From a virus: a DNA stretch of 36,440 bases. This document shows, one piece after another, positions 1-36,281 of this stretch (the stretch's first letter is position 1; each line of letters begins with the position of its first letter). The position numbers and the translations under genes were made by a program. The stretch covers positions 1 through 36,440 of the IMG/VR virus record IMGVR_UViG_3300045993_000165, one strand, 5' to 3'. The notes beneath the pieces were generated by a model that saw only the letters and a list, made by a program, of their open reading frames with translations, searched no databases and had not been told where the DNA came from.

Positions 1-32
1 ACATTCATGCACAGAACTATAGTGACTCACTT
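1..32. repeat. 32-nt sequence identical to the window end (36409..36440); assembly overlap or terminal redundancy, indicating a closed circular map
   Basis: acattcatgcacagaactatagtgactcactt is present at both extremities of the window. Confidence 0.9.
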
Positions 33-1169
33 AGAGCATTACTGATAGCAAAGTATCCTAACACAGAGAAGTATAATAACAGCAAAGCAATAGATAGATA
101 TCTTAAGAGACACATAGCAATCATTATTGATGACATGCATACAGTCTATACAAGAGCAAGACATAAACTATATAAGGAATACTTTTACATAGATATCACT
201 AAACTAAGAACTACATGGGGTCGCTTAACTCTTAATGGTAGATCGTGTTGGGGTACAGAAGTGCTATATAGACTTATGGTTGTAGAGATCTATCACGGAC
301 ATAATGGTATGTCGAGTGCCATAGATATAAAGAACCCGCTTCTACTGAAAGCAATCAGTGAGTGTGCTGATCACTACAACCCGAGACCTATCGTAATAGA
401 AGCAGATGAAGCAGATATAGTTGATACCTATTGTAATAGAAAGACACTTGAGGCATATGCAGCAGATCAGTCAAAGGATATCGTTCTAAGAAGAAAAGCA
501 AAGCAGATACTCAACTCATTAGATATGCACGACTGTTTCAAACAAGTGATCAAACGGCCAAGAATTGACCGCACTTATTTGCTTGGCCTCAATATACAAC
601 AGTGTAAAAAAGAACTTCGTGAGGCCATACTATCAGGTCAATACGAGTACGACTTAAATTGCGCGGTTTTGGCTCTCTTTGCAGCAGTAGCGCACAAGTT
701 AAGCAACAAGCCCTATGCTACTATTTTAAACTACGTTCACAACAGACATGCTATACGTCAACAGATAGCAGATGAGACAGGTTTAAGCATAGAGGAAGTC
801 AAGGAAGCACTTATAGCAGTGGGGTTTGGTAAGAGGGCTAAGAAAGCAAATGCTGTAGCAGTGATAATGTTTGCAAGTAAAACAGGTAAAGAAATCATAG
901 ATGAGTTTAGAAAAGCATCAACTGTTATCTATAAAGCACATAAAGAGGTAGGTGTTTCAAGATCTAAGAAGTTATCGTCGCTATTCTTTCAGTTCGAGTC
1001 TGAGTTTATGCGTGAGTTTGTATATCAAACAGGTCAAAAATGCAACTTGCCTATACATGACAGCGTTATATTGCTAAAACCTGTTAACATACAGCAAAAT
1101 GTTGCTAAAATGATGCTTTCGTTTACAGATCACATGGAGTATTTTGATGTTACAGGAGGTTTGATATGA
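3..1169 (+). CDS. C-terminal 388 codons of a wrap-around 431-aa ORF (start ATG at 36282): compact family-A/T7-like single-subunit polymerase-like protein
   Basis: The frame is open from nt 3, with no stop upstream of the tracked ATG at 135, and continues in phase from 36282 through the 32-nt overlap. Motifs seen: TTWGR (210-224), YEYDLNCAVLALFAAVAH (Asp at 651-653), KEALIAVGFG (801-830), PIHDSVIL (1056-1064). The stop overlaps the next start (ATGA at 1166). Confidence 0.6.
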   Translation: MHAQNYSDSLRALLIAKYPNTEKYNNSKAIDRYLKRHIAIIIDDMHTVYTRARHKLYKEYFYIDITKLRTTWGRLTLNGRSCWGTEVLYRLMVVEIYHGHNGMSSAIDIKNPLLLKAISECADHYNPRPIVIEADEADIVDTYCNRKTLEAYAADQSKDIVLRRKAKQILNSLDMHDCFKQVIKRPRIDRTYLLGLNIQQCKKELREAILSGQYEYDLNCAVLALFAAVAHKLSNKPYATILNYVHNRHAIRQQIADETGLSIEEVKEALIAVGFGKRAKKANAVAVIMFASKTGKEIIDEFRKASTVIYKAHKEVGVSRSKKLSSLFFQFESEFMREFVYQTGQKCNLPIHDSVILLKPVNIQQNVAKMMLSFTDHMEYFDVTGGLI

Positions 1170-1537
1170 ATTTATCCGAAGAAGACTACATGATAGAGAA
1201 ACTCAAGGGCGAGTTATTAAGTGGAAATGCCGATAGAAGTTTCTTTTTACCTTCAGATTCCCCATTTGTACCATATGACTGGACATTTGAAACATATGAT
1301 GAGTGGGTAGAAAGAAAACTAAATGAAAAAGGCCCTATGCAGAAATTACCGGTAACACAAGAACTAACTTCATTTATGGATACAGTTATGTGGTTTGGAA
1401 TGCACGAGGGTAAACTTATAAAAGATATACCACTTGGATATATTTTGTGGCTAACAAAAAATCTTGATAATGGTTTTGAAAGAAATCAGTTCTTGAGAGA
1501 ACTCAAACGACGGTATCAAGATATGGAGAACAGTTAA
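1166..1537 (+). CDS. Hypothetical protein with DUF3820-like C-terminal motif (MWFGMHEGKLIKDIPLGYILWL)
   Basis: AGGAGG RBS at 1154-1159 and ATGA coupling to the upstream gene. The motif resembles the F-G-K-x-K-G...P..Y..W signature of DUF3820, recalled from memory. Confidence 0.55.
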   Translation: MNLSEEDYMIEKLKGELLSGNADRSFFLPSDSPFVPYDWTFETYDEWVERKLNEKGPMQKLPVTQELTSFMDTVMWFGMHEGKLIKDIPLGYILWLTKNLDNGFERNQFLRELKRRYQDMENS

Positions 1538-1608: not shown

Positions 1609-1644
1609 AAGCCCGCTATCTTAAAGGGTAGCGGGCTTTTTATT
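1609..1644 (+). terminator. Rho-independent terminator
   Basis: 10-bp stem aagcccgcta/tagcgggctt (1609-1618 / 1629-1638) with a 10-nt loop, followed by a T-run. Confidence 0.75.
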
Positions 1645-1713: not shown

Positions 1714-2334
1714 ATGGAAGATGACGACGACAATGTGATACCTATCACACCAAAAACAAAGTTCAAACCAAGACAACATAAACCTACCAGAAATGTTTTT
1801 GATCCTACCAAGGAACGAAACGACATGACAGGCTATGCACCGTCACCCGGCTCTAAGGGCGGTCGCACATGGAAACCCGATACTATTGGCAGATATAAAA
1901 GCGGTGTGCTTGACTGGTCAGTTGACGAACTTATTGCATACAAGCAAACAGGTGCAACGCCAAAACGAATTCCTGATGTCGATATATTATACAAACTAGG
2001 TAAGGCAGGTGTTTCTATTATGAACTCATGCGATATATTTGGTATCAGTGCTGACAAGTTTAGTAGTAACCCCGACTGGAGCGATGCACATGCAGCAGGT
2101 CGTGCTCAACTTGGTAGTAAAATACGCACAAGTTTAGTTGAGGATGCACTAGAAAGAGACAACACCACAGTCAAAATATATCTAGACAAAATACTTGGTG
2201 GTGATAGAGAACAACCACAGGTAGTAGTTAATATTAAAAACAACGAACTACAAGAGTACTCAACAGAGGATCTTATCAATCTAGCATTCAAAGAAACACC
2301 CGATGACAGCACCGAAGCAGACAACAAAGAGTAA
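1714..2334 (+). CDS. Putative terminase small subunit
   Basis: 206-aa ORF immediately upstream of, and overlapping, the large terminase. It has a basic N-terminus, an HTH-like segment (LYKLGKAGVSIMNSCDIFGISADKF) and an acidic tail. The call rests on position and composition. Confidence 0.5.
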   Translation: MEDDDDNVIPITPKTKFKPRQHKPTRNVFDPTKERNDMTGYAPSPGSKGGRTWKPDTIGRYKSGVLDWSVDELIAYKQTGATPKRIPDVDILYKLGKAGVSIMNSCDIFGISADKFSSNPDWSDAHAAGRAQLGSKIRTSLVEDALERDNTTVKIYLDKILGGDREQPQVVVNIKNNELQEYSTEDLINLAFKETPDDSTEADNKE

Positions 2335-3769
2335 GATAAAGGCTGAATTGTGGAAGCGTGGTGCATTGCACTGGATTCTATATCCTCACCAACTACTTGT
2401 ATATAACAAAGTAAGAGAAATTCTTGCAAGTGACGACCCGTCTATGAACTCCTATGTGATAGACTGTGCTCGTCAGTTCGGTAAGTCCTTCATTATGTTT
2501 TTAATATCAGTTGAGGAATGTCTACGTAGACCAAATATAACCGTTGTGTATGTTGGACCACTCAAGTCTCAAGTAAACGAAATCATTAACGGTAACACAT
2601 TTGGCACTATGTTTGCTACTTGTCCACCTGACTTAACACCTAAGTATGATGCATCAACACTTGCATTTCCAAATGGCAGTCGTATTAGACTTGCTGGTAC
2701 TGACCAAAAGAACTATACCAACTTGCGCGGTGGTGCTGCTCACTTAGTAATACTTGACGAAGCAGGCTTTATGTCTGATCTTGAAACTGGTGTATTGCCA
2801 ACTGTAGAACCAATGACCAAAACCACAGGCGGTAAAGTAATATTTGCAAGCACACCACCCGATACATTGGATCACGACTATATACAAATACTGCGTGATC
2901 ATGACGAAGCAGGGCTTATTAGCACATTTACTATTTGGGATGATAAGTCACTAACAGAAATGCAACTACAAAAGATTATCAATCAGTGTAGGGGTAGAGA
3001 AACCACTAAGTTTAAGCGTGAGTATGAATGTCAACGTATTGTAGAGTCTAGTTTGCAAGTGGTTCCTGAACTTACAGAAGAAAAAGGAAAGCAACTTAGT
3101 ATTAACTTTGACTATAGGGGTGACCCATTATTAAAGTATTATCATAGATATATTGTGGTTGATACTGGTGTACGTGATAAAACAGCGGTGATATTTGCAC
3201 ATTACAACTATAGAAACAAGAAAGCAGTGATAGAAGCCACGTTAGACTTGCAAGGCAGTGAGTATAACACTGCAAAACTAGCAGATATGATAGAAAAGAA
3301 GCGTGATTTGCTGTGGGATAAGGACTTTACCGGTGAGTTACGCTATATTGCAGATAGTAACAACTTGATTGTTATAAATGACTTGAATATTATCTATAAG
3401 TTACCATTCATCGGCACAAACAAAGGTAGACTAGACGAAATGGTACAAAAAGTGCGTGATTGGGTGTATGATAACCGCATTTTATTCACGCCTGACGCTG
3501 CGGATGCACTAAACTGCACAAAGTTTGCTATTTGGAGCAAGTCACGCACTGAATTTGCTCGTTCAGCGAAATGGGGTCACTACGACTTAGTTGCCGCTAT
3601 CACCTACCTAATCCGTAATATTAACGAATATAAAGACCCTTTACCAGTAAATTCGCCTGACAGATATAATACATTCACTCCGCATGTTACACCCCCGAAT
3701 GTGTTACAATCAACAAGGGAACTTGAGGGTGTATTTTACAACCCACGCAAAGGCCTATCATACAACTAA
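2303..3769 (+). CDS. terL: Terminase large subunit
   Basis: Walker A-like CARQFGKS, Walker B LVILDEAGF, and a C-terminal nuclease-type acidic strand (YIVVDTGVRDKTAV). At 488 aa it is followed by the portal block. Confidence 0.85.
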   Translation: MTAPKQTTKSKIKAELWKRGALHWILYPHQLLVYNKVREILASDDPSMNSYVIDCARQFGKSFIMFLISVEECLRRPNITVVYVGPLKSQVNEIINGNTFGTMFATCPPDLTPKYDASTLAFPNGSRIRLAGTDQKNYTNLRGGAAHLVILDEAGFMSDLETGVLPTVEPMTKTTGGKVIFASTPPDTLDHDYIQILRDHDEAGLISTFTIWDDKSLTEMQLQKIINQCRGRETTKFKREYECQRIVESSLQVVPELTEEKGKQLSINFDYRGDPLLKYYHRYIVVDTGVRDKTAVIFAHYNYRNKKAVIEATLDLQGSEYNTAKLADMIEKKRDLLWDKDFTGELRYIADSNNLIVINDLNIIYKLPFIGTNKGRLDEMVQKVRDWVYDNRILFTPDAADALNCTKFAIWSKSRTEFARSAKWGHYDLVAAITYLIRNINEYKDPLPVNSPDRYNTFTPHVTPPNVLQSTRELEGVFYNPRKGLSYN

Positions 3770-3777
3770 GGAGAAAT

Positions 3778-4083
3778 ATGGGAAGACCTAAAATATATAG
3801 TAATGACGAAAGAATTAATAGAGCAAACTACCTTAATCACGCAAGTAGAGCACGTCGAAGAGGCATTGACTTTCATTTTACATTGGAAGAATGGCTCGAT
3901 ATGTGGATAACATCCGGACATTATCACGAAAGAGGTGTTAAAAGAGATCAATATGTTATGGCACGTAAAGGACCCGACATAGGGCCTTACTCAGTAGATA
4001 ACGTTGTTATTCAACTTTCTACTATTAACAATAGCGACGGGCATAAAGGCAGAAAATATCCAACAAAAAGGAAAACAATATGA
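3778..4083 (+). CDS. Small HNH-type (His-Me finger family-like) homing-endonuclease-like protein, paralog 1
   Basis: AAGGAG RBS. ARRRGIDFHFTLEEWLDMW...YVMARKGPDIGPYSVDNVVIQLSTINN resembles the A+KRGIxFxLT...SxDRIDxxxGYxxGNVxxIS..aN pattern of small phage HNH endonucleases. It is roughly 45 percent identical by eye to the core of ORF 30486..30938. Catalytic residues are not confidently identifiable. Confidence 0.5.
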   Translation: MGRPKIYSNDERINRANYLNHASRARRRGIDFHFTLEEWLDMWITSGHYHERGVKRDQYVMARKGPDIGPYSVDNVVIQLSTINNSDGHKGRKYPTKRKTI

Positions 4084-4310
4084 AATTACCAAAAACAGTC
4101 GAAGTAGTAGAAATACTCAAAGCAAAACCAGAAGCAGTAGATGCAGTTTCTGGCTTAATAGAGCGTAACTTAGAGTTAGAAGAGATATTTGAAATGTTAC
4201 AACCACTCTTATATCAACTTAGCACTATGTTATACACCAATGATGAACCAGTTGAGTTAAGCACTTTAGTAGTGCAAGCAGTAGAAATGTTAAAAGGAGT
4301 TAAACATTAA
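4080..4310 (+). CDS. Hypothetical protein (76 aa, acidic)
   Basis: ATGA overlap with the upstream gene and TAATG overlap with the downstream gene. Confidence 0.6.
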   Translation: MKLPKTVEVVEILKAKPEAVDAVSGLIERNLELEEIFEMLQPLLYQLSTMLYTNDEPVELSTLVVQAVEMLKGVKH

Positions 4311-4552
4311 TGAAAAAAGAAACTAAAAACCCAAATGATCCTATTGAGAAAACAGTAGATGTAGCACCTGCATGTGAATATTACAGGTTGTTTAAGACAG
4401 ACCGCAATATGTTTTGTGTAGAAACAGTTAAAGTAAAGGGAACTGAAATAGTTGAAGTGATCAGAACCGATCCAACCTTCATGCCTATTGCATTTGATCA
4501 AATGCGCCGTAAAACTGTTGGTATGTTTTTCCAAGCATTAGAGTCAGCATGA
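4310..4552 (+). CDS. Hypothetical protein (80 aa)
   Basis: AAAGGAG RBS at 4292-4298; translationally coupled on both sides. Confidence 0.6.
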   Translation: MKKETKNPNDPIEKTVDVAPACEYYRLFKTDRNMFCVETVKVKGTEIVEVIRTDPTFMPIAFDQMRRKTVGMFFQALESA

Positions 4553-4791
4553 TTTATCTAAGTATTGCATTAGTGATCATTGCAGGTATGGCAGCATATC
4601 TTGCAAACAAAATCATAGATAGAAAATATGTAATAAATACTGTATCTGCACCAGATGCAGATGCCGTTGCGGCTTTCGAAGAACAACTCAAGAAGTTTGA
4701 TGAGAGACTAAACAATACCTGGGGAACCGTCAGTGCTATCAAAACAGAACTGGAATCTATTAGGTTAGCAATAGCAATAAAAGGTAGGTAA
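4549..4791 (+). CDS. Hypothetical membrane-anchored coiled-coil protein (80 aa)
   Basis: N-terminal hydrophobic helix IYLSIALVIIAGMAAYLANKII, then a charged helical segment. ATGA overlap with the upstream gene. Confidence 0.6.
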   Translation: MIYLSIALVIIAGMAAYLANKIIDRKYVINTVSAPDADAVAAFEEQLKKFDERLNNTWGTVSAIKTELESIRLAIAIKGR

Positions 4792-4794
4792 TAC

Positions 4795-6846
4795 ATGAAT
4801 GATTTAGTGAATAATACAGAGCCAGTTGAGGAAGACTACTGGGCGGCAGGTGATACACGGATGTGTGCAGATGAAGTTATAAAGCGTTGTGATGACTACT
4901 TTACTTTCTGTCAATCCAAAGGATGGTTTACGCTTTGGAGACGCCTATACTATGCGTATAATCCAAATCGATACTCACTTGCACAAACAGTACAAGCAGG
5001 TGAAAGTGCAGAATATCGCACTATTAAAGTCAATCACTTCCGTAACTTACTAGAACATATTCAAACTTTAAGTATTACAGATAGGCCAGCATGGCAACCA
5101 CAGTCAACAAATACCGATTCTAGAAGTCAAAAACAAACTATTATCGCACAAGGTGTTCTAGACTATATGATGCGTGAAAAGCGTGTAGAACGACATTTGA
5201 AAGATGCTACTAGAAATGCACTGTTATTCACAGAGGGCTTCGTATCCGAAACTTGGGAACAAGATGCAGGTGAGGCACTCAGTCAAGACGAAACAGGTAA
5301 CACACAACATAGTGGTGACCTTAAGTACTCAAGTCACGAACCAGTTGATGTTGTACGTGATCCAAACTTGAAAGCATTTAATCAAAGATCCTGGGTGGTT
5401 ATTCGCACATACGAAAACAAATACGACTTAGCAAAGAAGTATCCAGAATATGCAGAAGAAATCACTGCACAAAAAGTTGGTGTCACTGTTAAGAATCACT
5501 ACCTGGGTGGCCAATACTTAGACCGCAGTGTTGAAAGTGACCAAATACCACTACTTACATTCTATCATGTAAAATCAGCAGGTTGCCCAGATGGCCGCCA
5601 AATGACTCTACTTACTGATGGCACTGTCCTAGTTGACGGCATCCTACTATATAAGCATATACCACTACACCGTATTGTATCAAATGATCAAATCGGCACA
5701 CCAATGGGTATGTCAGTTAGTGTTGACTTGCTACCATTACAAGAAATGTTAGATGCACACTATACTACTATTCTAAGCATTAACGAAAACTTTGCAATAC
5801 CAAAGATACTATTACCAATAGGTAGTAACATCATGGCAGATAGTTTAAGTGCAGGCTTTCAAGCAATCAGTTATAATCCACAAGGTGGCAAACCCGAAAT
5901 AATGAATATGCCAACCGCCCCAGACGGGTTATTCAAAGCAATGATTCAACTACAACACGATATGGAAACAATCAGCGGTGTAAATTCAGTTAGCAGAGGA
6001 AATCCCGAAGCATCCCTAAGAAGTGGTTCAGCATTAGCCTTAGTGCAATCAATGGCAATACAGTTCCATGCCCCACTACAGCAATCCTATATTAGTTTAC
6101 TTGAAGATGTAGGTACTGCCACTATACAAATAATGCAGGACTATGCAGATGCACCACGTATTATACAAATAGCAGGTAAGCGTAATAGAGGTATTATACA
6201 GCAAAGTTTCAGTAATAAAGATATTGACAGTATCAGCAGAGTACAAGTACAAGTAGGTAATCCACTTAGTAAAACAGTAAGTGGTAGATTAAGTATCGCT
6301 CAAGACTTGTTACAGAACAAGATTATCACTAATGCTGCCGAATACCTGATGGTGCTCGAAACCGGTGAGTTAGAACCACTAACACAAGGACCAACATTAG
6401 ACTTACTAAACTTAGCAAGTGAGAATGAAATGTTACTTGACGGCACTGATATTCCTGTATTGTTTACTGACAATCATCAACTACATATACAAGAACATGC
6501 TTCATTAGCAAGTGATCCACAAATACGCACTAATCCAAACCAGTTCGGTATTATTGCTAAACACATCATGCAGCATATTACTATGTTGAGTGATCCCGAC
6601 TATCAAAACTTTAGAATGCTTACCGGTCAGCCATCCATACAGGGCGGTATACCAACAAATGCACCACAGCAACCCGGTACCCCACAAGGTAATCCAGCAG
6701 GTGCCACTGCATTAAGTGCAGCAGGTGGACCAAACACACAAGCAAAGCCAACTAATGTAGCCCAGATGGCCGGTAATGTGCAACAACCACAAATGCCAAA
6801 GAACGCATTGACAGGTGAACAAGCACCACAACATCCACCATTATAA
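4795..6846 (+). CDS. Portal protein (putative)
   Basis: 683-aa ORF between the terminase block and a scaffold-like ORF, with a Q/P/G-rich disordered C-terminus. The assignment is by size and synteny; the family was not verified. Confidence 0.7.
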   Translation: MNDLVNNTEPVEEDYWAAGDTRMCADEVIKRCDDYFTFCQSKGWFTLWRRLYYAYNPNRYSLAQTVQAGESAEYRTIKVNHFRNLLEHIQTLSITDRPAWQPQSTNTDSRSQKQTIIAQGVLDYMMREKRVERHLKDATRNALLFTEGFVSETWEQDAGEALSQDETGNTQHSGDLKYSSHEPVDVVRDPNLKAFNQRSWVVIRTYENKYDLAKKYPEYAEEITAQKVGVTVKNHYLGGQYLDRSVESDQIPLLTFYHVKSAGCPDGRQMTLLTDGTVLVDGILLYKHIPLHRIVSNDQIGTPMGMSVSVDLLPLQEMLDAHYTTILSINENFAIPKILLPIGSNIMADSLSAGFQAISYNPQGGKPEIMNMPTAPDGLFKAMIQLQHDMETISGVNSVSRGNPEASLRSGSALALVQSMAIQFHAPLQQSYISLLEDVGTATIQIMQDYADAPRIIQIAGKRNRGIIQQSFSNKDIDSISRVQVQVGNPLSKTVSGRLSIAQDLLQNKIITNAAEYLMVLETGELEPLTQGPTLDLLNLASENEMLLDGTDIPVLFTDNHQLHIQEHASLASDPQIRTNPNQFGIIAKHIMQHITMLSDPDYQNFRMLTGQPSIQGGIPTNAPQQPGTPQGNPAGATALSAAGGPNTQAKPTNVAQMAGNVQQPQMPKNALTGEQAPQHPPL

Positions 6847-8107: not shown

Positions 8108-8163
8108 AATATCAAGTTATGATTGAAGGTGATGGTGGAGGTCAGTACACAGCCCTGCCGGGC
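8104..8163 (+). CDS. Possible 19-aa micro-ORF (MKYQVMIEGDGGGQYTALPG)
   Basis: ATGA overlap with the stop of the 80-aa ORF. Its 3' half contains the first partial copy of the ggtggaggtcag repeat. Coding status is uncertain. Confidence 0.2.
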
Positions 8164-8166
8164 TGA

Positions 8167-8243
8167 TTTTGATCGAGTAGAGTCGAAATGGTGGAGGTCA
8201 GTTTTGATCGAGTAGAGTCGAAATGGTGGAGGTCAGTTTTGAT
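8167..8243. repeat. 35-bp tandem direct repeat, 2.2 copies
   Basis: ttttgatcgagtagagtcgaaatggtggaggtcag at 8167-8201 and 8202-8236, then ttttgat. A partial copy, gatggtggaggtcag, lies at 8131-8145. Confidence 0.9.
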
Positions 8244-8409
8244 AGGCAAATAGTCTGACCCCCACCCTCGAAACCCACAATCTCAGAAGCACTTCCCACC
8301 CCCTCCCTATGCTGCTACTGTGTCGAATAGAGTTTCACCTCGCACTCTGAAACTCATTGTATCTCGCACAGTAGGCCTAGGCTAAGCGGGGTAAGCCGTT
8401 TCACGGCAG

Positions 8410-8523
8410 ACCTCGTATAGCACGAAGTGCTATACAAGGTATAAATTTCGCCTTATTTGTATGGTTTTCTAAGCCTATCCATCACCGTGGGTATCCTGTA
8501 TAGCACTTCGTGCTATACGAGGT
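8410..8523. repeat. Inverted pair of palindromic hairpin elements (GTATAGCAC-GAA-GTGCTATAC and GTATAGCAC-TTC-GTGCTATAC)
   Basis: The element at 8410-8440 is nearly the reverse complement of the one at 8494-8523. Each has a perfect 9-bp stem and a 3-nt loop. Confidence 0.85.
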
Positions 8524-8701
8524 GATTGCCACCTAGGCAACACGTTACCACCATGCGAGGCCTAGGTGTTCATTTAGGCTTTCAAAATGCCACGAGGTGA
8601 GCCTATCTTATTATACTATATATCTCGCTGTATGTCAACCCGGTGGGACCGTGAAACGGCACCTAGACGGAATGGTTATCTAGGATAGAAAGGTTAGGGA
8701 A

Positions 8702-8781
8702 TAGAGTTTCGATAGGGTTTCGTTGAGCCAGATAGAAACTTATTAGAGTTTCGATAGAAATGTTTTTGAAAGAGTTTCGCC
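8702..8781. repeat. Iteron-like direct repeats of TAGAGTTTCGATAG / AGAGTTTCG
   Basis: tagagtttcgatag at 8702-8715 and 8744-8757, and agagtttcgcc at 8771-8781. A degenerate gggtttcg lies at 8716-8723. Related copies: tagagtttc at 8328-8336 and tagagtcga inside the 35-bp repeats. Confidence 0.7.
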
Positions 8782-8845
8782 GAGGGGCATTTACCTATCA
8801 AAGTGCCTATGCTAAACGGGTTCTAAACCGTATCAAATGCCTATA

Positions 8846-8908
8846 AGAATACCTAGCATTCTGCTAGATTGCCCTATACATTTCGTTAGAATACCTAGCA
8901 TTCTGCTA
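8846..8908. repeat. 21-bp direct repeat, 2 copies, 42-bp period
   Basis: agaatacctagcattctgcta at 8846-8866 and 8888-8908. Confidence 0.9.
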
Positions 8909-8940
8909 ATAATAAAATCTTTTGTCGTACGAGGCTACCA

Positions 8941-8987
8941 ATGGAAGTCTTTATGACTTCCATGAGGTCCGTGTTGCGTAGCAACAC
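8941..8987. terminator. Two adjacent hairpins between the convergent arms (possible bidirectional termination zone)
   Basis: atggaagtc/gacttccat (8941-8949 / 8955-8963) and gtgttgc/gcaacac (8971-8977 / 8981-8987). The flanking U-runs are weak. Confidence 0.4.
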
Positions 8988-9002
8988 AACCAACTTTATT
9001 CT

Positions 9003-9215
9003 TTATGAGTCAAATGGTAGATTAATAATCGGGAGAGGAACTTCTTTGAGTTTTCTCTCGTAGTCTCTTTTATCTGACAAATATGTAAGATAAAGCATCA
9101 CTACTATACATAATGCTAATACTCCGTACCAACTAATAATACTCGCAAGTATTGGAATAGCAGGTATTAGGCCTACCAACACACAAAATATAATAAGGCC
9201 GGCAATAACTTTCAT
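9003..9215 (-). CDS. Small two-transmembrane protein, holin-like
   Basis: 70 aa with two hydrophobic helices and a charged C-terminus (SDKRDYERKLKE). It is the last gene of the minus-strand arm. Confidence 0.4.
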   Translation of the reverse strand: MKVIAGLIIFCVLVGLIPAIPILASIISWYGVLALCIVVMLYLTYLSDKRDYERKLKEVPLPIINLPFDS

Positions 9216-9226
9216 ATTATATTGTG

Positions 9227-12722: not shown

Positions 12723-14304
12723 TATTCTTTCCTTCTAGTTTTAAAATTCTTTGATGTTGATTGGCTATTACAGCAAGTGCTTTACTCATTGCTTCTGGCT
12801 TTTGGACCATTTTGCCTGCTGGAGTATTTACTACTGAGTCAGGCATGCCTTTTTCCATATCTTGTGCAAGTATTCCTGCCTGCATAGGGTTCTTCTTATC
12901 ACCCTTGTAGCGATATTTATAGCCCGACATAGTTGCCATCATTTCGTCTACTTCCTTATCTGTAAGTTTCTTCTTATCAGTCTTAAGGTTTTTATCACTT
13001 AACCAATCCAGCCAGCCGCTGTCTGTTGCAGTATCACCTAAGTTTTCAAGTGGGCCTGTTCCGTTAAATGCTGAACCGAATGCGTCTGCCGCAGTTGTTA
13101 CACCTGCTCCTGCGTTTGGTATAGATGCCCAGTCAACTATGTTAGAAACTTCAGCAGCGGTTGCTGGTGTAAATACTCCGTTTAAGAACTTACCAACTTT
13201 CTCTACTCCGTTTACTACTGTCTTAACTAAGCCACCTGCTCCACCACTGCCGTTAATTTGATTACCTAACCAATCAAGTTGACCGGTTGTGTCTTTTGCT
13301 TGTGCTGCGCCAAGTGTGGCTAAGTTCTCGCCTGCCTTTAGTTGTGCTGCGGCTGCTGCTTTGTTCTTATCAAGTAAGTTAGTAAAGGATTGTTGTGCAG
13401 TTTGTAGTGGCATCATCAACTGTGTATTCTTAATGCCAACATTCTTACCAGCAATTTCATTTGCAGTATTAAAGTTGAGTGCATTTGCTGCTTGAGTGTT
13501 ACTTGCATTTTGTGCTGCTGCTGTATTAGTTGCTGCGGCATTCTGTTGATTAACTGTGTTAGCAGTATTGAAGTTAGCCAAGTTGGCTGCTTGTTGTGCT
13601 TGTGCATTGGCTGCACTAACTGCATTCTTTGCTTGTGCATTAAACTGATTGATCACATCCTGTGCACTGGCTTTCTGTGCTTCTTGTCCAAACAACTGTT
13701 GGTTTAAGTTTGTATTACCTGTTAAACCTGCCTGTATTGCTGCTAATGCGCGTGCTTGTGCTGACTGTGCTAAGTTTGCACCTGCTGCTGCATTACTATT
13801 TGCTGTTGACTGGGTACCGGCGAGTCTGGCTGCTAGTTCCGCACCAGTACCTGCATTGCCCTGCATTTGTAGTTGTTGGAGTTGACCTGCACGCTGTTGT
13901 GCTGCATTAGCATTGGCTTGATTCATCACTGTATCAAACTGTGCTCTATCTGCGTCTGTTAAGCCTTTGTTCTTACCTATCGTATCAAGTTGACCTAGTG
14001 CAGTTCTTGCACCTTGTATGGTTGATTGATCCGACTGCACACCAGTCATATTGCTTGCTTCTTGCAATGCTGCCTGGAACTGTGCCGGTTCCATATGTCC
14101 TTGTACCTGAGCCATTGCTGCTTGGTACTGCGCAGGGGTCATTGTCCCTTGCTGAACTTGCAACTGTAGTTCTGGTATCAGTGCCATTAAGTCTGGTACT
14201 GACATTTCTGCAAGTGACTTACCTGCATTCGTTAAAAAGTCTTGGGCATCTCCAAGTGCACCACCTGATAGGAAGTTACTTAACCCGCTGAATATATTTG
14301 GCAT
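12712..14304 (-). CDS. Ala/Gln/Asn-rich coiled-coil fibre-like protein with C-terminal peptidase-S74-like intramolecular chaperone domain
   Basis: The last ~95 aa (nt 12712-12999) read SDKNLK...YKYRYKGD...GILAQDMEKGMPDSVV...IANQHQRILKLE. This matches the SDxxLK / Y.Y.YK / G.IAQ[ED] / coiled-coil order of S74 domains. Confidence 0.5.
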   Translation of the reverse strand: MPNIFSGLSNFLSGGALGDAQDFLTNAGKSLAEMSVPDLMALIPELQLQVQQGTMTPAQYQAAMAQVQGHMEPAQFQAALQEASNMTGVQSDQSTIQGARTALGQLDTIGKNKGLTDADRAQFDTVMNQANANAAQQRAGQLQQLQMQGNAGTGAELAARLAGTQSTANSNAAAGANLAQSAQARALAAIQAGLTGNTNLNQQLFGQEAQKASAQDVINQFNAQAKNAVSAANAQAQQAANLANFNTANTVNQQNAAATNTAAAQNASNTQAANALNFNTANEIAGKNVGIKNTQLMMPLQTAQQSFTNLLDKNKAAAAAQLKAGENLATLGAAQAKDTTGQLDWLGNQINGSGGAGGLVKTVVNGVEKVGKFLNGVFTPATAAEVSNIVDWASIPNAGAGVTTAADAFGSAFNGTGPLENLGDTATDSGWLDWLSDKNLKTDKKKLTDKEVDEMMATMSGYKYRYKGDKKNPMQAGILAQDMEKGMPDSVVNTPAGKMVQKPEAMSKALAVIANQHQRILKLEGKNNGK

Positions 14305-14882
14305 TATTCTTTTCCTTTAAGTGATTTTCTTTTAGCCCAACTATTTTTCTGGGCTTCGGCCATTTTTAATTTCTGTTCCTGGCTGTATGGTGGGCGTTTA
14401 TTTCTAGCAATCTTTAGATTTGCTTTATGTTCATCTGTTCTGGTAGGTTTTTTTCTTCCCAGTAAAGATTTTGAAACTTTATCTTTATGTTGTTCTGATA
14501 GTTCTTTATCTTTCCAATATCCTCTATGTCCCATCAATGCTTTTGATCTTTTCTCTTTCGCTGTATCTGATTGAATATATGTTCTGGTACCTTCACCACC
14601 GTCTGTTAGATTAAGCAATGGACCACGTCCTAAATCTTTTCTACCAAATTTAGCAATTAGTTCCTCTTCAACTAATAATGCTAGTTCTTCATCGAATCCT
14701 GCATAGATACCTATTACCGGCTTGACATTATTTTTCTTCATATGCTTTAGTCTAGATACAAATGGCGTATGTTTATTAGATCCTAAATGAGACCAGGCTC
14801 TGTCATTACAGCCTTTGCCTATATAGAAAGGTTCATTATGCCTAGACGGATCGTAATAGATATATGTATAGAAGTTATTCAT
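14304..14882 (-). CDS. GIY-YIG homing endonuclease with NUMOD3-type repeats
   Basis: N-terminal YIYYDPSRHNEPFYIGKG...RAWSH...EEELIAKFGR...LLNLTDGG carries the GIY-YIG, Arg, Glu and Asn elements. The C-terminal half has three basic repeats: SEQHKDKVSKSLLGRK, TDEHKANLKIARNK and SQEQKLKMAEAQKNSW. Confidence 0.85.
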   Translation of the reverse strand: MNNFYTYIYYDPSRHNEPFYIGKGCNDRAWSHLGSNKHTPFVSRLKHMKKNNVKPVIGIYAGFDEELALLVEEELIAKFGRKDLGRGPLLNLTDGGEGTRTYIQSDTAKEKRSKALMGHRGYWKDKELSEQHKDKVSKSLLGRKKPTRTDEHKANLKIARNKRPPYSQEQKLKMAEAQKNSWAKRKSLKGKE

Positions 14883-21482: not shown

Positions 21483-23552
21483 TTATCTTAGTTCTGACCA
21501 GTAACTTATACCCGAGGCTGAAGTAACTTTATATGTGTATCCGGCCGGTACTATAAATGACGGAGTTACAGTAATATTAACTGCACCAACAGAAAACATT
21601 GTTGTTCCATTAACTATAATTGTTGTTCCGGAGTTACTATCACAAATAACCATAACTTGAATCGGTTTCGATGTGCTGTTTGTATATGTGGTGCCCGATG
21701 TTCTTGATGCTGTTAAGTTCGACCAAGATTGACCAACACCTACTCCTTGAGCATTAGTACAGTTTGATAAATCACCACTGCTCGGTGTACCTAGCACGCC
21801 ACCCGGTGAATACTTGGCGTTGAATAAACTCCAATCAGCCGCTGTTAAGGCACCGCGATTGGTTGCATTAGCAGTTGGAACATTTAATGTAATAACTGGT
21901 GTGGTAGTGCTATTTGCTACAGTTGATGTAATATTAACACCTGTTGAACCAATAGTTAGTGCAGCCACAGAAGTTACTGTGCCTGACCCGCCTGTTCCAC
22001 TTGCTGCTGCTGTAATGCGTCCTTTGCTATCAACTGTTATACTTGCATTAGTATAACTGCCTGGAGAAACTGTTGTATTTGCTAATGTAAGCGGTATACC
22101 TGTAGTGCCTGTTCCAGTAGCATCACCGCTTACTGTAATATTTTGATTACCTACAATATACCCTGTGTTTGACGCAGCATATACAATGCCTTTGGCAGAT
22201 ACAGAAACTGTATTATAGGTGCCTGCTGCTACACCACTTGCCGCTAATGTTGCTGCAAAAGTGCCTGTACCTGTACCTGTTACATCACCTGTCAACGTAA
22301 TAGTTTGAGGTGTTCCACTTGCTACTGCTGTAATGCGTCCTTTGCTATCAACTGTTAAACTGCTATGTGTATATGAGCCGGGTGTCACTGCTGTATTTGC
22401 TAATGTTGTTGCAAAAGTACCGGTGCCACCACCTGTTACATCACCAGTTAATACAATAGATTGGTCACCTGTGTTTGACCCGCTTGCTGTACCGCTAATA
22501 TTACTACCTGTGACTGTTCCACTTGCTGCCACACTTGTTGGAGTGATTGCACCTAGTCCTATTGATATATTGGGTGTAGTGGTAGCAGTTGCTACAGAAG
22601 CAGTGACTCCGTTACTTGGTGTAACTGCAACACTTGTTACAGAACCTGCACCGGGAAATGCTGCCCAGGAAGTATCTGCTCCGTCTGTGATAAGAACTTT
22701 GCCAGCGTTAGTGGCCTGAGATGGTGCAAGTGCATTAAATGATGCATTTGCAGTAGTCTGTCCTGTTCCACCTAAAGCAATCGGTACTGTTACTGCTAAA
22801 GTTGTTGTGAAACTTCCTGTTCCACTACCAGTTACATCGCCAGTTAACGTTATTGTCTGATCACCTGTGTTTGTGTTAGAACTAGTGCCGCTATGAGTAC
22901 CACTCAAGTTACTACCAGTTACTGTTCCCACTGCTGCTACACTCGCGGGGGTGATTGCACCGAGTGTCAGTTCTAAAGTAGGTGTCACTGTAGGGTCAGT
23001 TACTACACCAGATACACCATTTGCATTAGTGAAGGTAAAACCAACTACAGATCCACCTGATCCACCACCGCTTGCACCCCATTTAAGCCCTGTCGGGGAT
23101 GAACTATCAGCGGTTAAAACTAAGCCATTTGCACCGACAGGCAATCTATCATTAATAGTGCTGAATGTGTATAAATCACCTTTGGTGGTAAGTGGACTAC
23201 CACCTGCACCACCCGAGCCGATAGGACTACCAGCAAAGTAGAGTTCATTACCGACTATTGAAAGTTGTAGGTCACCCGAGTTCAACGAGTTTCTCCAAGT
23301 AATAGAATCTGTATTTGAAAGTCTTAGTACACCAGTTTCTGCTGTCTGTATTGATGCTGATCTAAAGAACGGTGCTCTTAGACCATTTGCATTACCAAAG
23401 TCTACATCATTTGTAAGTGTAAATGTTCCGCCAGATAAGGTTAGAGACCCGCTTGCTAATGCAGTTAGGTAGTTTGTAACTGATTGCCCCCATCCTCTTT
23501 CACCTGTTACAGGGATAATGTATGGTAGGCCGTTGTATATTACTGTTGACAT
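21483..23552 (-). CDS. Tail fibre protein with phage-fibre repeats
   Basis: Four repeats of the type GDQ(T/S)I(T/V)LTGDVTG.GTG.F..TLA...V.PGSYT...(T/I)VDSKGRIT...SG. Confidence 0.75.
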   Translation of the reverse strand: MSTVIYNGLPYIIPVTGERGWGQSVTNYLTALASGSLTLSGGTFTLTNDVDFGNANGLRAPFFRSASIQTAETGVLRLSNTDSITWRNSLNSGDLQLSIVGNELYFAGSPIGSGGAGGSPLTTKGDLYTFSTINDRLPVGANGLVLTADSSSPTGLKWGASGGGSGGSVVGFTFTNANGVSGVVTDPTVTPTLELTLGAITPASVAAVGTVTGSNLSGTHSGTSSNTNTGDQTITLTGDVTGSGTGSFTTTLAVTVPIALGGTGQTTANASFNALAPSQATNAGKVLITDGADTSWAAFPGAGSVTSVAVTPSNGVTASVATATTTPNISIGLGAITPTSVAASGTVTGSNISGTASGSNTGDQSIVLTGDVTGGGTGTFATTLANTAVTPGSYTHSSLTVDSKGRITAVASGTPQTITLTGDVTGTGTGTFAATLAASGVAAGTYNTVSVSAKGIVYAASNTGYIVGNQNITVSGDATGTGTTGIPLTLANTTVSPGSYTNASITVDSKGRITAAASGTGGSGTVTSVAALTIGSTGVNITSTVANSTTTPVITLNVPTANATNRGALTAADWSLFNAKYSPGGVLGTPSSGDLSNCTNAQGVGVGQSWSNLTASRTSGTTYTNSTSKPIQVMVICDSNSGTTIIVNGTTMFSVGAVNITVTPSFIVPAGYTYKVTSASGISYWSELR

Positions 23553-23561
23553 TTTATTCCT

Positions 23562-25166
23562 TTAACCTAGTCTTGCTTCTACAGCATCTACTTTGGCTGA
23601 CAGTTCTTGGATTGCTTTTATCATTGGTCCAATCAGTTCTTCATATCCGATAGATAATGCATCATCACCGCCGCCTAGTTTATGATCTTGATACCCACCA
23701 AAGTCAACACCAAAGTGTTCCATTGCTTGCTTAACTTCTTGGGCAATAAGCCCGTGGTGTTTTCTATTACGAGTTTTACTACCATCATGAGTAAGGTTAG
23801 ACAGTTTAGATGCTTCAAGCCAGGAGTCAGTTCTGCTCTTAAATTGCTCGTCTGTTTCATCTACTTCCCTAATAGGTGCAGGAAGGCGATAATCTTCGCG
23901 CATATCCCACTTAAAGTCTACAGCACGTAAGAAGTTGATAAAGTCTAAACCTAGTGTGGTATCAGTAACATCTGCTTTGTCTCGAATATCTGAACGGTTC
24001 TGCAATGCACCATATGCATATGATGTAACAGCACTATTACCTAGTTGAAGTTGGCAACTACCTGTTACTGCAGAACACCAACCTATCGACGAGGAATTAA
24101 TAGTATTTAATGCTGTATAGAACGATTGCGGGCCGACTGCTGTATTACACGAACCAGTTGTTGTAAATTGCAATGCACCCATACCAAATCCTGCATTTTG
24201 ATTACCTGTGGTCAGGCTTCCGGCGGCTCTCCCTACTACTGTATTATTACTACCTACTGCACCTGTCATTGATGTATCACCTACTACAACATTACCATAA
24301 CCGGTAGTATTTTGATATAGTGTTCGCCACCCTATAGCAATATTTTGGCCGCCTGTGGTATTACTACACAAAGAGTAATACCCGATTCCTATGTTTGCAA
24401 GCCCTCCTGTATTCAAGGATAGACTTCTTTCACCTATTGCTACATTCCAACAACCGGATGTGTTTTTTTGTAGCGCACAATAACCAACTGCAATATTACT
24501 ATACCCTACTGTATTTTTCTCTAAGGCGCTAACACCAATCGCCACATTGTTAATACCTGTGGTAATATTATTAAGTGTTAGATATCCTAAACTTGTATTA
24601 AACGGTGTTGCGCTATTAGTGACACCTAGTAAACTACTGCCACCACCTGCACCACTGAATCCACTTGTACCTGTAGCACCAGATACGCCACTGTAACCGC
24701 TAGTGCCGACACCGGTAGCACCGCTGATACCACTATAGCCAGATGCACCTGTTACGCCATTTGAGCCACTTACACCACTATAGCCACTTGTACCTGCACC
24801 GGCCGGACCTGTAGCACCACTAATACCACTATAGCCAGATGCGCCTGTTACGCCATTTGAGCCACTTACACCACTATAGCCAGATGCGCCTGCTGCTCCA
24901 GTAGTGCCAGAATAGCCACTTACACCTGCTCCAGTAGCGCCTGAGTAGCCACTAGTGCCTGTACCGCTGTAACCGCTAGTTCCACTTGTTCCAGTAGTGC
25001 CAGAATAGCCACTTACACCATCTGCACCTATAGTTCCATTTGTGCCACTATAGCCAGAGACACCACTTACACCACCAGATGGCCCTATGGCTCCACTAAA
25101 CCCACTAAAACCGCTGTAGCCGGATATATACCCGCCACCCAGCAGATCATTTAAATATATTGCCAT
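23562..25166 (-). CDS. Tail fibre: collagen-like GXY region, Hep_Hag/YadA-head-like repeats and C-terminal peptidase-S74 intramolecular chaperone domain
   Basis: GYSGxSG triplet repeats over about 170 aa, then NN.AIG..AL..NTxG repeats. The C-terminus (nt 23562-23993) reads SDIRDK...DFKWD...GLIAQEV...IKAIQELSAKVDAVEARL. Confidence 0.8.
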   Translation of the reverse strand: MAIYLNDLLGGGYISGYSGFSGFSGAIGPSGGVSGVSGYSGTNGTIGADGVSGYSGTTGTSGTSGYSGTGTSGYSGATGAGVSGYSGTTGAAGASGYSGVSGSNGVTGASGYSGISGATGPAGAGTSGYSGVSGSNGVTGASGYSGISGATGVGTSGYSGVSGATGTSGFSGAGGGSSLLGVTNSATPFNTSLGYLTLNNITTGINNVAIGVSALEKNTVGYSNIAVGYCALQKNTSGCWNVAIGERSLSLNTGGLANIGIGYYSLCSNTTGGQNIAIGWRTLYQNTTGYGNVVVGDTSMTGAVGSNNTVVGRAAGSLTTGNQNAGFGMGALQFTTTGSCNTAVGPQSFYTALNTINSSSIGWCSAVTGSCQLQLGNSAVTSYAYGALQNRSDIRDKADVTDTTLGLDFINFLRAVDFKWDMREDYRLPAPIREVDETDEQFKSRTDSWLEASKLSNLTHDGSKTRNRKHHGLIAQEVKQAMEHFGVDFGGYQDHKLGGGDDALSIGYEELIGPMIKAIQELSAKVDAVEARLG

Positions 25167-25477: not shown

Positions 25478-25939
25478 TTACTTCTTGTCATATATGTTTA
25501 AGTGGCTTGGTTGAACGTGTGTTGAAACCAGTTGATCCACTTTTGCATGATATGCTGCCACCGAAACCTCTATCTCGTGCATCTCTAATGATAGAGAACT
25601 TATGTTACCAGTCGTCCACACAAATGCTGCTATAATAAGTGACTGAATAGCACCTAATACCCACACACCTATCTTGTAACTTCCCCTAAACTGATTCAGT
25701 AAGGCGGCTTCATTTTCGGCATGTTCGCTAAAGTCTTTTCTATGATCTCTAAATGCAGTTACGTGATCATTCAATCTACCACTAATATCTTCTACTGCAA
25801 TAGTATTTTTTATTAGTGATTGATTGATGTTGTTTAGGACCATTAGGGTGGCACGTTTCTCAGAATCATTTTCGGCACTAATCATTGCCTCTATATCTAG
25901 TGTATTCATATGATCGGTTGCCCTTTTATTGTATTCCAT
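25478..25939 (-). CDS. Membrane protein of unknown function within the fibre cluster (153 aa)
   Basis: One clear hydrophobic helix (IGVWVLGAIQSLIIAAFVW). TAATG coupling to the 1488-aa gene. Confidence 0.5.
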   Translation of the reverse strand: MEYNKRATDHMNTLDIEAMISAENDSEKRATLMVLNNINQSLIKNTIAVEDISGRLNDHVTAFRDHRKDFSEHAENEAALLNQFRGSYKIGVWVLGAIQSLIIAAFVWTTGNISSLSLEMHEIEVSVAAYHAKVDQLVSTHVQPSHLNIYDKK

Positions 25940-30485: not shown

Positions 30486-30938
30486 ATGATAAATGCTAAA
30501 GACAAATATAGAAATCATATGGGTAGAGCCCGTCGCAGAAATATACCATTTCTTCTTACATTTGATGAATGGTTGTCCATATGGGAACAGTCCGGACATT
30601 CAAATAATCGCGGCCCCAATGAGGGACAATATTGTATGTCGAGGTATAACGATCTTGGAAACTATGAAGTTGGGAATGTATTTATTCAACTATCTTCAGA
30701 AAATGCAAAGCAGGGAAGGACCGGCATGAGAGATGGTATACGAACGAAACTTAATGCTGGCGAGTTGTATACAAAAAGAGTAAGATCGATTAGAACAGTA
30801 CCATTAAGAAAAGTCATGGTTAAAGATATTATTTATAATACTATTAAAGAAGCATCTAATGAGTTAAATGTATCTCAACAGTGTATTAGAAGTAGAATAG
30901 TTCAGAAATATGATAATGGGTCTTATCGATATCTGTGA
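30486..30938 (+). CDS. HNH-type homing-endonuclease-like protein, paralog 2, with C-terminal NUMOD1-like HTH
   Basis: GRARRRNIPFLLTFDEWLSIW...YCMSRYNDLGNYEVGNVFIQLSSENAK is paralogous to ORF 3778..4083. The C-terminal IIYNTIKEASNELNVSQQCIRSRIVQ is NUMOD1-like. It is the only plus-strand gene inside the minus-strand arm. Confidence 0.55.
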   Translation: MINAKDKYRNHMGRARRRNIPFLLTFDEWLSIWEQSGHSNNRGPNEGQYCMSRYNDLGNYEVGNVFIQLSSENAKQGRTGMRDGIRTKLNAGELYTKRVRSIRTVPLRKVMVKDIIYNTIKEASNELNVSQQCIRSRIVQKYDNGSYRYL

Positions 30939-36103: not shown

Positions 36104-36176
36104 ATTTACTTTCTTATTATATTTATCGGCAGTAATAAAATATATGCTGTATTTACGGTATTATGAGGCGTATTTT

Positions 36177-36226: not shown

Positions 36227-36281
36227 GTATTGTTATAAGCACATACATCCAACCACATATCATTAAGGAATACACTCTCAC

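Follow-up and report, generated by a model that had tools for sequence, protein, structure and literature searches.

The window analysed here, the whole 36,440 nucleotide (nt) stretch of IMG/VR virus record IMGVR_UViG_3300045993_000165, carries across its joined ends a gene for a 431 amino acid (aa) protein. Judged by the conservation of its active site and by its predicted fold, this protein is a divergent, unannotated member of the TV-Pol family, and neither a canonical Pol I nor an RNA polymerase (RNAP) of the T7 or N4 type. TV-Pols are little-studied relatives of the family A polymerases, 400-600 aa in length, from transposons, plasmids, prophages and viruses (Iyer, Abhiman & Aravind 2008, Biol Direct 3:39; PMC2579912). 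This kind of polymerase, including its presence in viruses, has been known since 2008; what is new is its occurrence in a small tailed phage in which no other replication gene could be detected, with no helicase association, several canonical residues lost, a repeat array embedded in the gene and at least 817 related sequence clusters that lack a curated model. The role that it probably fulfils is that of a minimal family A polymerase which initiates replication of the phage genome before the host replisome takes over.

The first 32 nt of the window are identical to the last 32 (1-32 = 36409-36440), and the window is hence a circular, circularly permuted or terminally redundant assembly, with a unit of 36408 bp. 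Naive joining of the two ends produces a stop after 67 aa, while collapsing the overlap yields a single open reading frame (ORF) from ATG 36282 to TGA 1167-1169. A prior annotation made by eye from the letters alone, hereafter the sequence-only reading, had proposed exactly this ORF; it stands once the 32 nt duplicate is collapsed, and the residue coordinates given with it were all found correct on the 431 aa protein. ATG 36282 is the sole in-frame ATG, GTG or TTG upstream of a conserved helix starting at residue 44, and no further such codon occurs between it and M88. As the contig ends split the gene, the source database called it only as a 297 aa fragment; shortening of junction-crossing genes is a feature of the source annotation.

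Close homologues, at approximately 50% identity, number only five among 5.8 billion clustered proteins. An exhaustive HMMER profile search of 1.84 billion representatives gave 817 proteins at E ≤ 1e-3, 165 of them at E ≤ 1e-10; the majority are about 460-570 aa long. They make up a superfamily that comprises, at 50% identity, no fewer than 817 clusters sharing a GRxY…NLQ / YD / K…GFGA / HD signature. Conservation was counted in an alignment of 136 sequences with around 20% identity to the query. D260 (nt 651-653) and K310 (801-803) are invariant, both at 136/136, as is D396 (133/133), while R233 (570-572), Q242, H395 and G319 are nearly so (134/136, 133/136, 130/133 and 132/136 respectively). 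Position 318 is F or Y in 135 of the 136 sequences, and R249 is at least 95% conserved; the positions conserved at 90% or more include R233, Y235, L241, Q242, R249, L253, Y259, Y287, R295, G319, E375, H395 and D396. Written as columns, the first part of the signature is G-R-x-Y-x-x-G-x-[NS]-L-Q; [KR]-x-V-R-x-A-A-L; Y-D and the second is Y…[RK]…R; K-x3-T-A-x-G-[FY]-G-A; Y-Q-x-x-E; L-L-x-x-H-D-[CGA]. The first three blocks match the Pol I string TGRLSSxxPNLQNIP…IRxAF…D(YSQIELR). Motifs A (D260), B (K310…F318-G319) and C (H395-D396), which the sequence-only reading had picked out, are therefore real and far beyond chance by the measure of this conservation, and the two aspartates that it supposed to be catalytic are retained in every homologue counted.

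Other details of that annotation require revision. The string TTWGR (residues 113-117, nt 210-224), thought to be a T/DxxGR motif, lies in a separate N-terminal domain and is only moderately conserved (G116 in 107/136 sequences, R117 in 72/136). The equivalent of Pol I 'TGRLSSxxPNLQN' is 'DRTYLLGLNIQQ', which contributes R233, Y235, G238, L241 and Q242 and lies 27 aa before D260. Similarly, HDS (H395-D396-S397, nt 1056-1064) had been regarded as an RNAP-type form of motif C, yet the residue following HD is C, G or A in the family, with S found in two sequences. The Cys at D+3 of the window protein is not conserved either. Two of its other observations were accurate: the steric-gate position (D+5) is Val, being S, V, H or A across the family, and the position of Y766 and Y639 is Phe, with the family split between F (105 sequences) and Y (30). 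The O-helix Arg, Klenow R754, is absent family-wide; the corresponding position 306 is E, V, I or T, with Ile in the window protein. Equivalents of the steric-gate Glu and of F762 are likewise missing throughout the family. The conserved R291 and R295, near K310, might substitute for the missing Arg of the RxxxK motif.

An AlphaFold model built from the 136-sequence alignment has a predicted local distance difference test (pLDDT) score of 91 and a predicted TM-score of 0.84, with only residues 1-30 falling below a pLDDT of 50 and the fourth block of ten averaging 54. A model made from a six-sequence alignment reached a pLDDT of 58 and was discarded, not being used for searching. The predicted topology is that of a family A palm, fingers and thumb. 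When compared with the PDB using Foldseek, all of the best 50 matches are family A DNA polymerases (DNAPs), at probabilities of 0.99-1.00, and include Aquifex Pol I (E = 5e-5), T7 DNAP, apicoplast Pol, Klenow, Taq, Bst, Pol nu and DpoZ; no RNAP of the T7 or N4 type is present among these 50. The similarity of the palm and fingers to the Pol-A fold, at first perceived from motifs, is thereby recovered from the predicted structure. Among predicted viral structures, the top three matches are uncharacterised proteins from uncultured Caudovirales (TMq 0.48-0.63), and the best named ones are V13-type replication proteins of virophages and giant viruses (E 9e-9 to 3e-6, TMq 0.44-0.47, root mean square deviation ~5 A), including the 778 aa Zamilon V13 orthologue (E = 2.8e-6, TMq 0.44). 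Canonical PolA proteins in the viral structure library fit less well, with a TMq of approximately 0.35. Over its whole length, Zamilon ORF9 shares 67% identity with Sputnik V13 (PMC3991649).

The spacing of the motifs leads in the same direction. Measured on reference sequences from annotated records, the distances from the conserved Arg to motif A, from A to B and from B to C are 27, 50 and 86 aa in the window protein, 37, 53 and 124 aa in Klenow, 46, 47 and 132 aa in T7 DNAP and 112, 94 and 181 aa in T7 RNAP. The layout is thus, at the level of sequence, a compressed form of the DNAP type and not of the RNAP type. The RNAP-like distance to motif A advanced previously was the result of using the wrong Arg; that from R233 is Pol-I-like. 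Using hhalign, the family profile could be placed on Klenow residues 652-765 with TGR, NLQ, IRxAF and K-x7-[FY]G in register, such that K310 aligns with K758 of Klenow and K522 of T7 DNAP, and F318-G319 with Y766-G and Y530-G. The resemblance of 'IADETGLSIEEV' to Klenow 'AAEVFGLPLETV', previously seen by eye, emerged again from this alignment. No match to the T7, SP6, phiKMV or Syn5 RNAPs or to N4 mini-vRNAP was obtained by the same means (RNAP alignments, P = 0.26-0.44), and the match to N4 gp16 consists of 11 columns of motif C only (P = 0.002). These hhalign comparisons against small home-made DNAP and RNAP alignments are too weak to classify the protein by themselves. Pfam RNA_pol does not match the window protein, and nor does any exonuclease family of Pfam, PHROGs or NCBIfam; the judgement that the protein has no recognisable active exonuclease and no specificity loop was sound.

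Mapped onto the genome, the predicted domains occupy consecutive segments of the plus strand. Residues 1-42 (36282-36408) form a T/S/H-rich extension that is disordered in the model, in which residues 1-30 have a pLDDT below 50; distant relatives begin at about residue 44. There follows an alpha/beta accessory domain (residues 44-186, nt 3-431; pLDDT >90), which holds TTWGR. The length of this domain is conserved across the superfamily, but it has no conserved acidic residues, and in the N-terminal region conservation of 60% or more is seen only at L57, G116, G142, L192 and A209; it is possibly a vestigial exonuclease-like domain or a DNA-binding domain. Helices 189-197 and 203-214 (nt 432-521) are taken as a short thumb of the TV-Pol topology described in PMC2579912, about 15 aa shorter than in most relatives, which have a median insertion of 15 aa after residue 204. 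The next segment (528-653) comprises a beta-hairpin, 221-227 and 235-237, that carries R233, then 'GLNIQ' with Q242, a short helix (246-252) with R249 and the motif A strand (257-261). The 'ELREAIL' of that helix, which contains R249, corresponds to 'IRQAF' of Pol I. The helical fingers (residues 264-386, nt 663-1031) contain Y287, R291, R295, an O-helix-like helix (306-318) with the invariant K310 and F318-G319 (825-830), and an 'FQFE' helix with E375. Motif C is a beta-hairpin of strands 392-394 and 397-400 (1047-1073), with H395-D396 at the turn (1056-1061). In the model, the two aspartates are accordingly positioned at the end of strand 257-261 (D260) and at the turn of hairpin 392-400 (D396).

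The hallmarks of TV-Pols are a thumb of two antiparallel helices, a hairpin in which one Arg is absolutely conserved, an RRM-like palm bearing two Asp and RxxxK fingers; they are never linked to nucleases, being associated instead with D5-like helicases or with genes for resolvases, integrases or IS630 and IS605 transposases, and are related to both DNAPs and T7-like RNAPs (PMC2579912). Members include the founding Sputnik V13 and an element of Microcystis phage Ma-LMM01 (PMC2579912). The window protein has the family A core, the Arg hairpin (R233), the two palm Asp and the fingers Lys, and lacks a nuclease. Furthermore, the family HMM identifies a single match among 39 ORFs of Ma-LMM01, a 506 aa ORF at 22746-24266 (27 bits) that adjoins an IS605-type transposase pair, and hhalign aligns the two over 190 columns with all motifs in register (85% probability, P = 6.5e-6). 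As to mobile genes, no helicase, integrase or transposase was detected in the window phage, but some relatives have a resolvase, recombinase, DDE_3 or integrase gene nearby: a resolvase and DDE_3 beside P0160, a recombinase on Polaromonas plasmids and integrases as three viral neighbour proteins. The expectation of a minimal single-subunit polymerase of the family A and T7-like superfamily, with a two-Asp active site, is therefore upheld, while N4 RNAPII, initially named as the closest precedent, gives way to the TV-Pol family (PMC2579912) and to CcPol (PMC7581432).

With the TV-Pol family, to which the V13-type proteins and the Ma-LMM01 element belong, the window protein has in common a minimal core without a nuclease, a size of 400-600 aa and carriage by viruses, plasmids or transposons. 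The V13-type proteins of Sputnik and Zamilon are fusions of a TV-Pol to a D5 helicase, whereas neither a D5-like helicase fusion nor a D5-like neighbour was detected in the window phage or, as a recurrent feature, in 19 related viral loci. The TV-PolN domain of PMC2579912 is all-helical, while the N-terminal domain predicted here is alpha/beta. What further distinguishes the gene from those of other TV-Pols is that it is the only detectable replication gene of a tailed phage and has a phased repeat array at its 5' end. The canonical family A enzymes (Klenow, T7 gp5, apicoplast Pol) share with it the palm, fingers and thumb, the order of the motifs and the distance between motifs A and B (50 aa, against 53 and 47), but are about twice its size; it lacks an active 3'-5' exonuclease, has a truncated thumb and a B to C distance of 86 rather than 124-132 aa, and retains K, [FY]G and HD without equivalents of R754, E710, F762 and E883. 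Neither Pfam DNA_pol_A nor profile searches of PDB sequences are sensitive enough to detect it. N4 RNAPII (gp15/gp16) and the T7-like RNAPs belong to the same broad superfamily and share the HD of motif C, with the motifs of gp16 being on a subunit of ~400 aa; unlike these systems, the window phage has no homologue of the second subunit, no promoter-recognition elements and no dispersed promoters.

A closer functional comparison is offered by CcPol, from SCCmec and mobile elements of Bacillota, an active primer-dependent DNA polymerase that becomes a deoxynucleoside triphosphate (dNTP) primase in the presence of the protein MP (Bebel et al. 2020, PMC7581432); the wider group has been described as the PolA-SSB primases of SCCmec and Bacillota mobile elements (Rice 2023, PMC10061031). 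The short helix ahead of its motif A has been suggested to make space for an initiating nucleotide (PMC7581432). The window protein resembles CcPol in being an exonuclease-less A-family polymerase on a mobile element, in having a small coupled ORF downstream and in the shortness of this helix (246-252), Q242 and R249 being 7 aa apart against 13 in Klenow; a role in replication initiation is plausible here too. The two differ in that the steric-gate Glu (E174) and the F762 equivalent, both missing from the window family, are retained by CcPol, which is also in an operon with the helicase Cch2, where the window operon consists of the polymerase, ORF2 and a putative terminator. MP is an OB-fold protein, whereas ORF2 carries PF12843. 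Finally, NCBI domain searches recognise CcPol as 'PolA', but no Pfam, NCBIfam or PHROG model matches the window family.

Searches of annotated collections returned little. The window protein has no match in Pfam, PHROGs, NCBIfam or PADLOC, and the same four collections failed to match the superfamily members tested; a Pfam scan of the window protein and ten relatives did not find DNA_pol_A, and profile searches against the sequences of all PDB chains found no PolA. Translated searches (tblastn) with the window protein and P0013 of approximately 50,700 GenBank phage records gave no match, while a search with the close-clade alignment retrieved only an already known contig and nothing from 185,579 species genomes. 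The contigs that carry P0013 and P0009 are of about 2 kb and show no gene neighbourhood. Matches to sigma70, through the string 'ETGLsIEeVK', and to ribosomal protein S15 in the PDB sequence searches (phmmer, hmmsearch) were rejected as chance. A reading as a sigma factor or helix-turn-helix (HTH) regulator, arising from weak sigma70 and HTH_15 matches, was dropped because the E-value of the profile rose to 0.13 and the predicted fold is that of a polymerase. An anti-phage defence function was also dismissed, given the absence of a PADLOC match and the location of the gene in the core early operon of the phage.

The genome is arranged as two arms diverging from an AT-rich intergenic region (36104-36281; up to 75% A+T), which separates the polymerase gene from a leftward early operon whose first member is an HTH gene (35720-36103, minus strand). 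A candidate sigma70-like promoter (36197-36226, TTGTAA-18-TATACT with an upstream TG) is proposed here from its match to the consensus. The polymerase gene is coupled through an ATGA overlap to ORF2 (1166-1537, plus strand; 123 aa), the C-terminal domain of which is PF12843 (DUF3820/QSregVF_b; 26.1 bits, cut-off 22). ORF2 also weakly matches the C-terminal tails of Pol III epsilon-like proteins in NCBIfam (E 0.003-0.007), and no relative was found in the PDB; it is a candidate accessory protein. A 60 aa homologue of the ORF2 domain lies near the polymerase gene in one close relative (L001) and is absent beside it in another (L002). The unit of polymerase and ORF2 ends, before the small and large terminase genes, in a hairpin resembling an intrinsic terminator (1610-1642, plus strand), read from the sequence as AGCCCGCTA / TAGCGGGCT with a 10 nt loop followed by TTTTT; a terminator scan with a loop limit of 8 nt missed it. 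After the hairpin, the plus arm encodes a probable small terminase, so placed as it lies upstream of TerL in two relatives, then TerL and a P22-like portal. The minus arm encodes the HTH protein, small early ORFs, a RusA-like resolvase, an MT-A70 methylase, an SU10-like major capsid protein, collagen-like fibre proteins, and adaptor and virion proteins, and homing-endonuclease-like ORFs are found on both strands.

No other polymerase, helicase or primase was identified by Pfam and PHROGs among ORFs of at least ~60 aa, a scan that did not cover four ORFs of 76-101 aa in 3778-4791; no single-stranded DNA-binding protein was detected in the genome. The suggestion that this is the only polymerase-like gene of the phage agrees with these scans. 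The arrangement is identical in the two close relatives with enough sequence, and in 21 further viral contigs, most of 22-42 kb, the superfamily gene again lies among small early-type ORFs. The view that such an enzyme is unusual for a phage must be softened to this extent, since related genes exist in at least 21 other viral contigs, although its minimal nature was correctly perceived. Pooling the 131 larger neighbouring proteins of 19 non-redundant loci, Pfam identifies terminases, portals, coat proteins, lysozymes, integrases and methylases. Among the 25 most frequent of the 48 neighbour Pfam families, none is that of a helicase, primase or polymerase.

These results are best accommodated by a model in which the polymerase and ORF2 would form a short early operon, transcribed from the AT-rich control region between the two arms. 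The polymerase, which we infer to be catalytically active and to make DNA, would then synthesise DNA at an origin, whether by priming de novo as a primase-polymerase or from the end of a transcript, and so create a primed or displaced-strand structure at which the host replisome (DnaB and Pol III, via the restart machinery) would take over. Such a hand-over would explain why the phage has no helicase, primase or other polymerase of its own. De novo priming by the window protein is made plausible by analogy with CcPol and MP, and by the short helix before motif A.

Several considerations weigh against this proposal, or against the family assignment that underlies it. The Arg four residues before the fingers Lys is missing from the RxxxK motif (Ile306), as it is from the Ma-LMM01 ORF, and the identity of that ORF as the TV-Pol of PMC2579912 is deduced from its position beside transposases. 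The statistics against canonical PolA profiles are weak, at P = 3.7e-4 for Klenow alone and P = 0.04 for a six-sequence DNAP alignment. Because the O-helix Arg, the steric-gate Glu and the F762 equivalent are all absent, the sequence does not allow prediction of whether dNTPs or ribonucleoside triphosphates (rNTPs) are the substrate. Klenow Q849 makes a minor-groove contact; the narrow clade of the window protein lacks its equivalent (residues 371-374, nt 987-998), having F, R or A, where 119 of 135 superfamily members keep the Gln. ORF2 is not conserved beside the gene in one of the two close relatives (L002), and a single helicase in one of the 19 loci could be missed when 25 of 48 families are examined. 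No D5-type helicase is linked to the gene, though primase activity of TV-Pols was first argued from such a linkage. The sole biochemically characterised TV-Pol, CcPol, requires a partner protein, and is not from a phage. Lastly, the origin remains at the level of a candidate, whether it is the TCTCA array at 36276-36408 or the 8108-9226 region.

The alternative that deserves most attention, while still being rather doubtful, is that the protein is a primer-dependent DNA polymerase without primase activity, either extending a transcript of host RNAP as Pol I does in ColE1-like replication, or serving gap filling, repair or recombination-dependent replication. CcPol without MP just extends primers (PMC7581432), the fold and motifs of the window protein are DNAP-like, the promoter region directly upstream of the gene could supply a priming transcript and the RusA-type resolvase is compatible with recombination-linked replication. 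However, a bulk replicase would not be expected to have so short a thumb, nor to be without any processivity or proofreading module, and the short helix preceding motif A is like that of de novo initiators. Beyond these points, the sequence favours neither this alternative nor the initiating polymerase. Little probability attaches to the protein being a minimal single-subunit RNAP, transcribing part of the genome or synthesising RNA primers, as favoured by the sequence-only reading. The Val at D+5 (S, V, H or A in the family) does not obviously exclude rNTPs, HDS and the Cys at D+3 are as in T7 RNAP, TV-Pols are related to T7-like RNAPs as well as to DNAPs (PMC2579912) and there is the short motif C match to N4 gp16. 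Yet RNAPs account for none of the 50 best structural matches, profile similarity is absent for four T7-like RNAPs and confined to 11 residues for N4 RNAPII, the motif spacing is that of a DNAP, Phe takes the Tyr639 position in 105 of 136 sequences, and neither HDS nor the D+3 Cys is conserved. There is also no promoter-binding domain or specificity loop; and the genome, which has sigma70-like promoters and the terminator-like hairpin, contains no dispersed 12-14-mer motif. By the strict criterion of an exact match, no 14-mer and just one, coding, 12-mer occur at three or more sites over 300 nt apart. A role as a transcriptase is unlikely in view of this absence and of the DNAP-like spacing, structural matches and family profile, and the leaning towards an RNAP is not supported.

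Hardly probable at all is a polymerase-derived but mainly non-catalytic initiator, comparable to lambda O or RepA, that binds its own TCTCA array and recruits host factors. The phased array in the 5' coding region beside an AT-rich stretch has the layout of ori-lambda, the gene is the first of an early operon and a plasmid relative is in an operon with repA. Against this, the Asp, Lys and hairpin Arg residues are invariant, or nearly so, in 136 divergent sequences, which indicates selection for catalysis; the array and the N-terminal extension are limited to a narrow clade; and origin binding and catalysis are compatible with one another. A more elaborate version of the initiating polymerase, which must be considered improbable as a whole, is a helicase-less, one-enzyme initiation module: the polymerase would recognise its own iteron array, or the repeats at 8.1-9.2 kb, perhaps via its N-terminal domain, open or exploit the AT-rich DNA and prime de novo before the host replisome takes over. 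If this were true, the primers of an enzyme without a steric gate could be RNA or mixed RNA and DNA, a third, PolA-based route to phage origin firing would exist apart from the lambda O/P and primase-helicase routes, and the module would stand for an uncurated superfamily of at least 817 sequence clusters.

Two regions can be considered as origins. The first is a phased array of ten (T/A)CTCA(C) units on the plus strand (36276-36408), spaced by 10-14 bp, or by 20-21 bp where one is skipped, that includes two 38 nt near-repeats (36314-36351 and 36371-36408) with 89% identity. TCTCA occurs eight times in 135 nt, compared with a mean of 2.4 and a maximum of four in shuffled sequences (n = 200), and these are eight of the 20 plus-strand sites of the genome. 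The array region encodes the disordered T/S/H-rich N-terminus, which is present in the narrow clade only, and the arrays of close relatives are weaker. In ori-lambda, repeats within gene O stand beside AT-rich DNA, an arrangement to which that of the TCTCA array can be likened. From its sequence, the array is a candidate protein-binding or iteron array inside coding sequence and may be an origin. The second region, of about 1.1 kb (8108-9226), lacks ORFs of at least 70 aa, lies at the convergence of the two arms of transcription and has many exact repeats: a 35 bp tandem repeat (8167-8243), three copies of the 15-mer ATGGTGGAGGTCAGT, four of AGAGTTTC(G), a 32 nt inverted repeat (8410-8441 / 8492-8523) with palindromic arms, and a 21-mer and a 14-mer each present twice at 42 bp spacing. 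No tRNA and no Rfam match were found in it, and it is a candidate origin, pac site or regulatory or non-coding RNA region. Because GC skew reaches its extremes at the strand switches, it does not tell replication apart from transcription.

In 2008, a primase-polymerase activity was predicted for TV-Pols (PMC2579912). Genes of the superfamily described here are annotated as 'hypothetical' because no Pfam, PHROG, NCBIfam or PADLOC model matches them, with one plasmid record mislabelled as containing a Clp protease domain, and phages like that of the window therefore seem devoid of replication genes. Their recognition as TV-Pols supplies these small phages with a replication enzyme. At 431 aa, the window protein is a compact candidate for understanding how a family A polymerase works without the steric-gate Glu and the O-helix Arg, and one enzyme with candidate cis-elements makes a simple system for PolA-type origin firing without a dedicated helicase or primase. 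The assignment of the fold will be no great surprise to a specialist, but the biochemical questions are directly testable.

Some related genes were observed in settings other than phages. A 465 aa member in a Rhodoferax metagenome-assembled genome and in wastewater contigs (L008-L012) is divergent to a gene for a 219 aa serine resolvase and adjoins an IS630-type DDE transposase; this unit, found on approximately 20 contigs, has the appearance of an active mobile element such as those reported in 2008. Small Polaromonas plasmids also encode TV-Pol-like proteins (pW9NP1, L013, 37-1653; pH8NP1, L014, 6095-7600), one of which is directly upstream of repA on a plasmid of 7.2 kb. Their RefSeq names are 'hypothetical protein' and 'Clp protease N-terminal domain-containing protein', the latter of which looks like a misannotation.

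Elsewhere in the window, homing-endonuclease or HNH-like ORFs are found among the structural genes at 14304-14882 (minus strand) and 30486-30938 (plus strand), the second of these being opposite in strand to its neighbours, a collagen-like fibre gene of 1488 aa and the major capsid gene. Proteins of 534 and 1488 aa with collagen-triple-helix repeats (23562-25166 and 25939-30405, minus strand) are presumably tail fibres; one collagen-repeat protein ends in an endosialidase chaperone (Peptidase_S74), and collagen repeats dominate the tandem-repeat output. The head module is split, with the SU10-like major capsid gene (30985-32253, minus strand) approximately 24 kb from the terminase and portal genes (2303-6846, plus strand).

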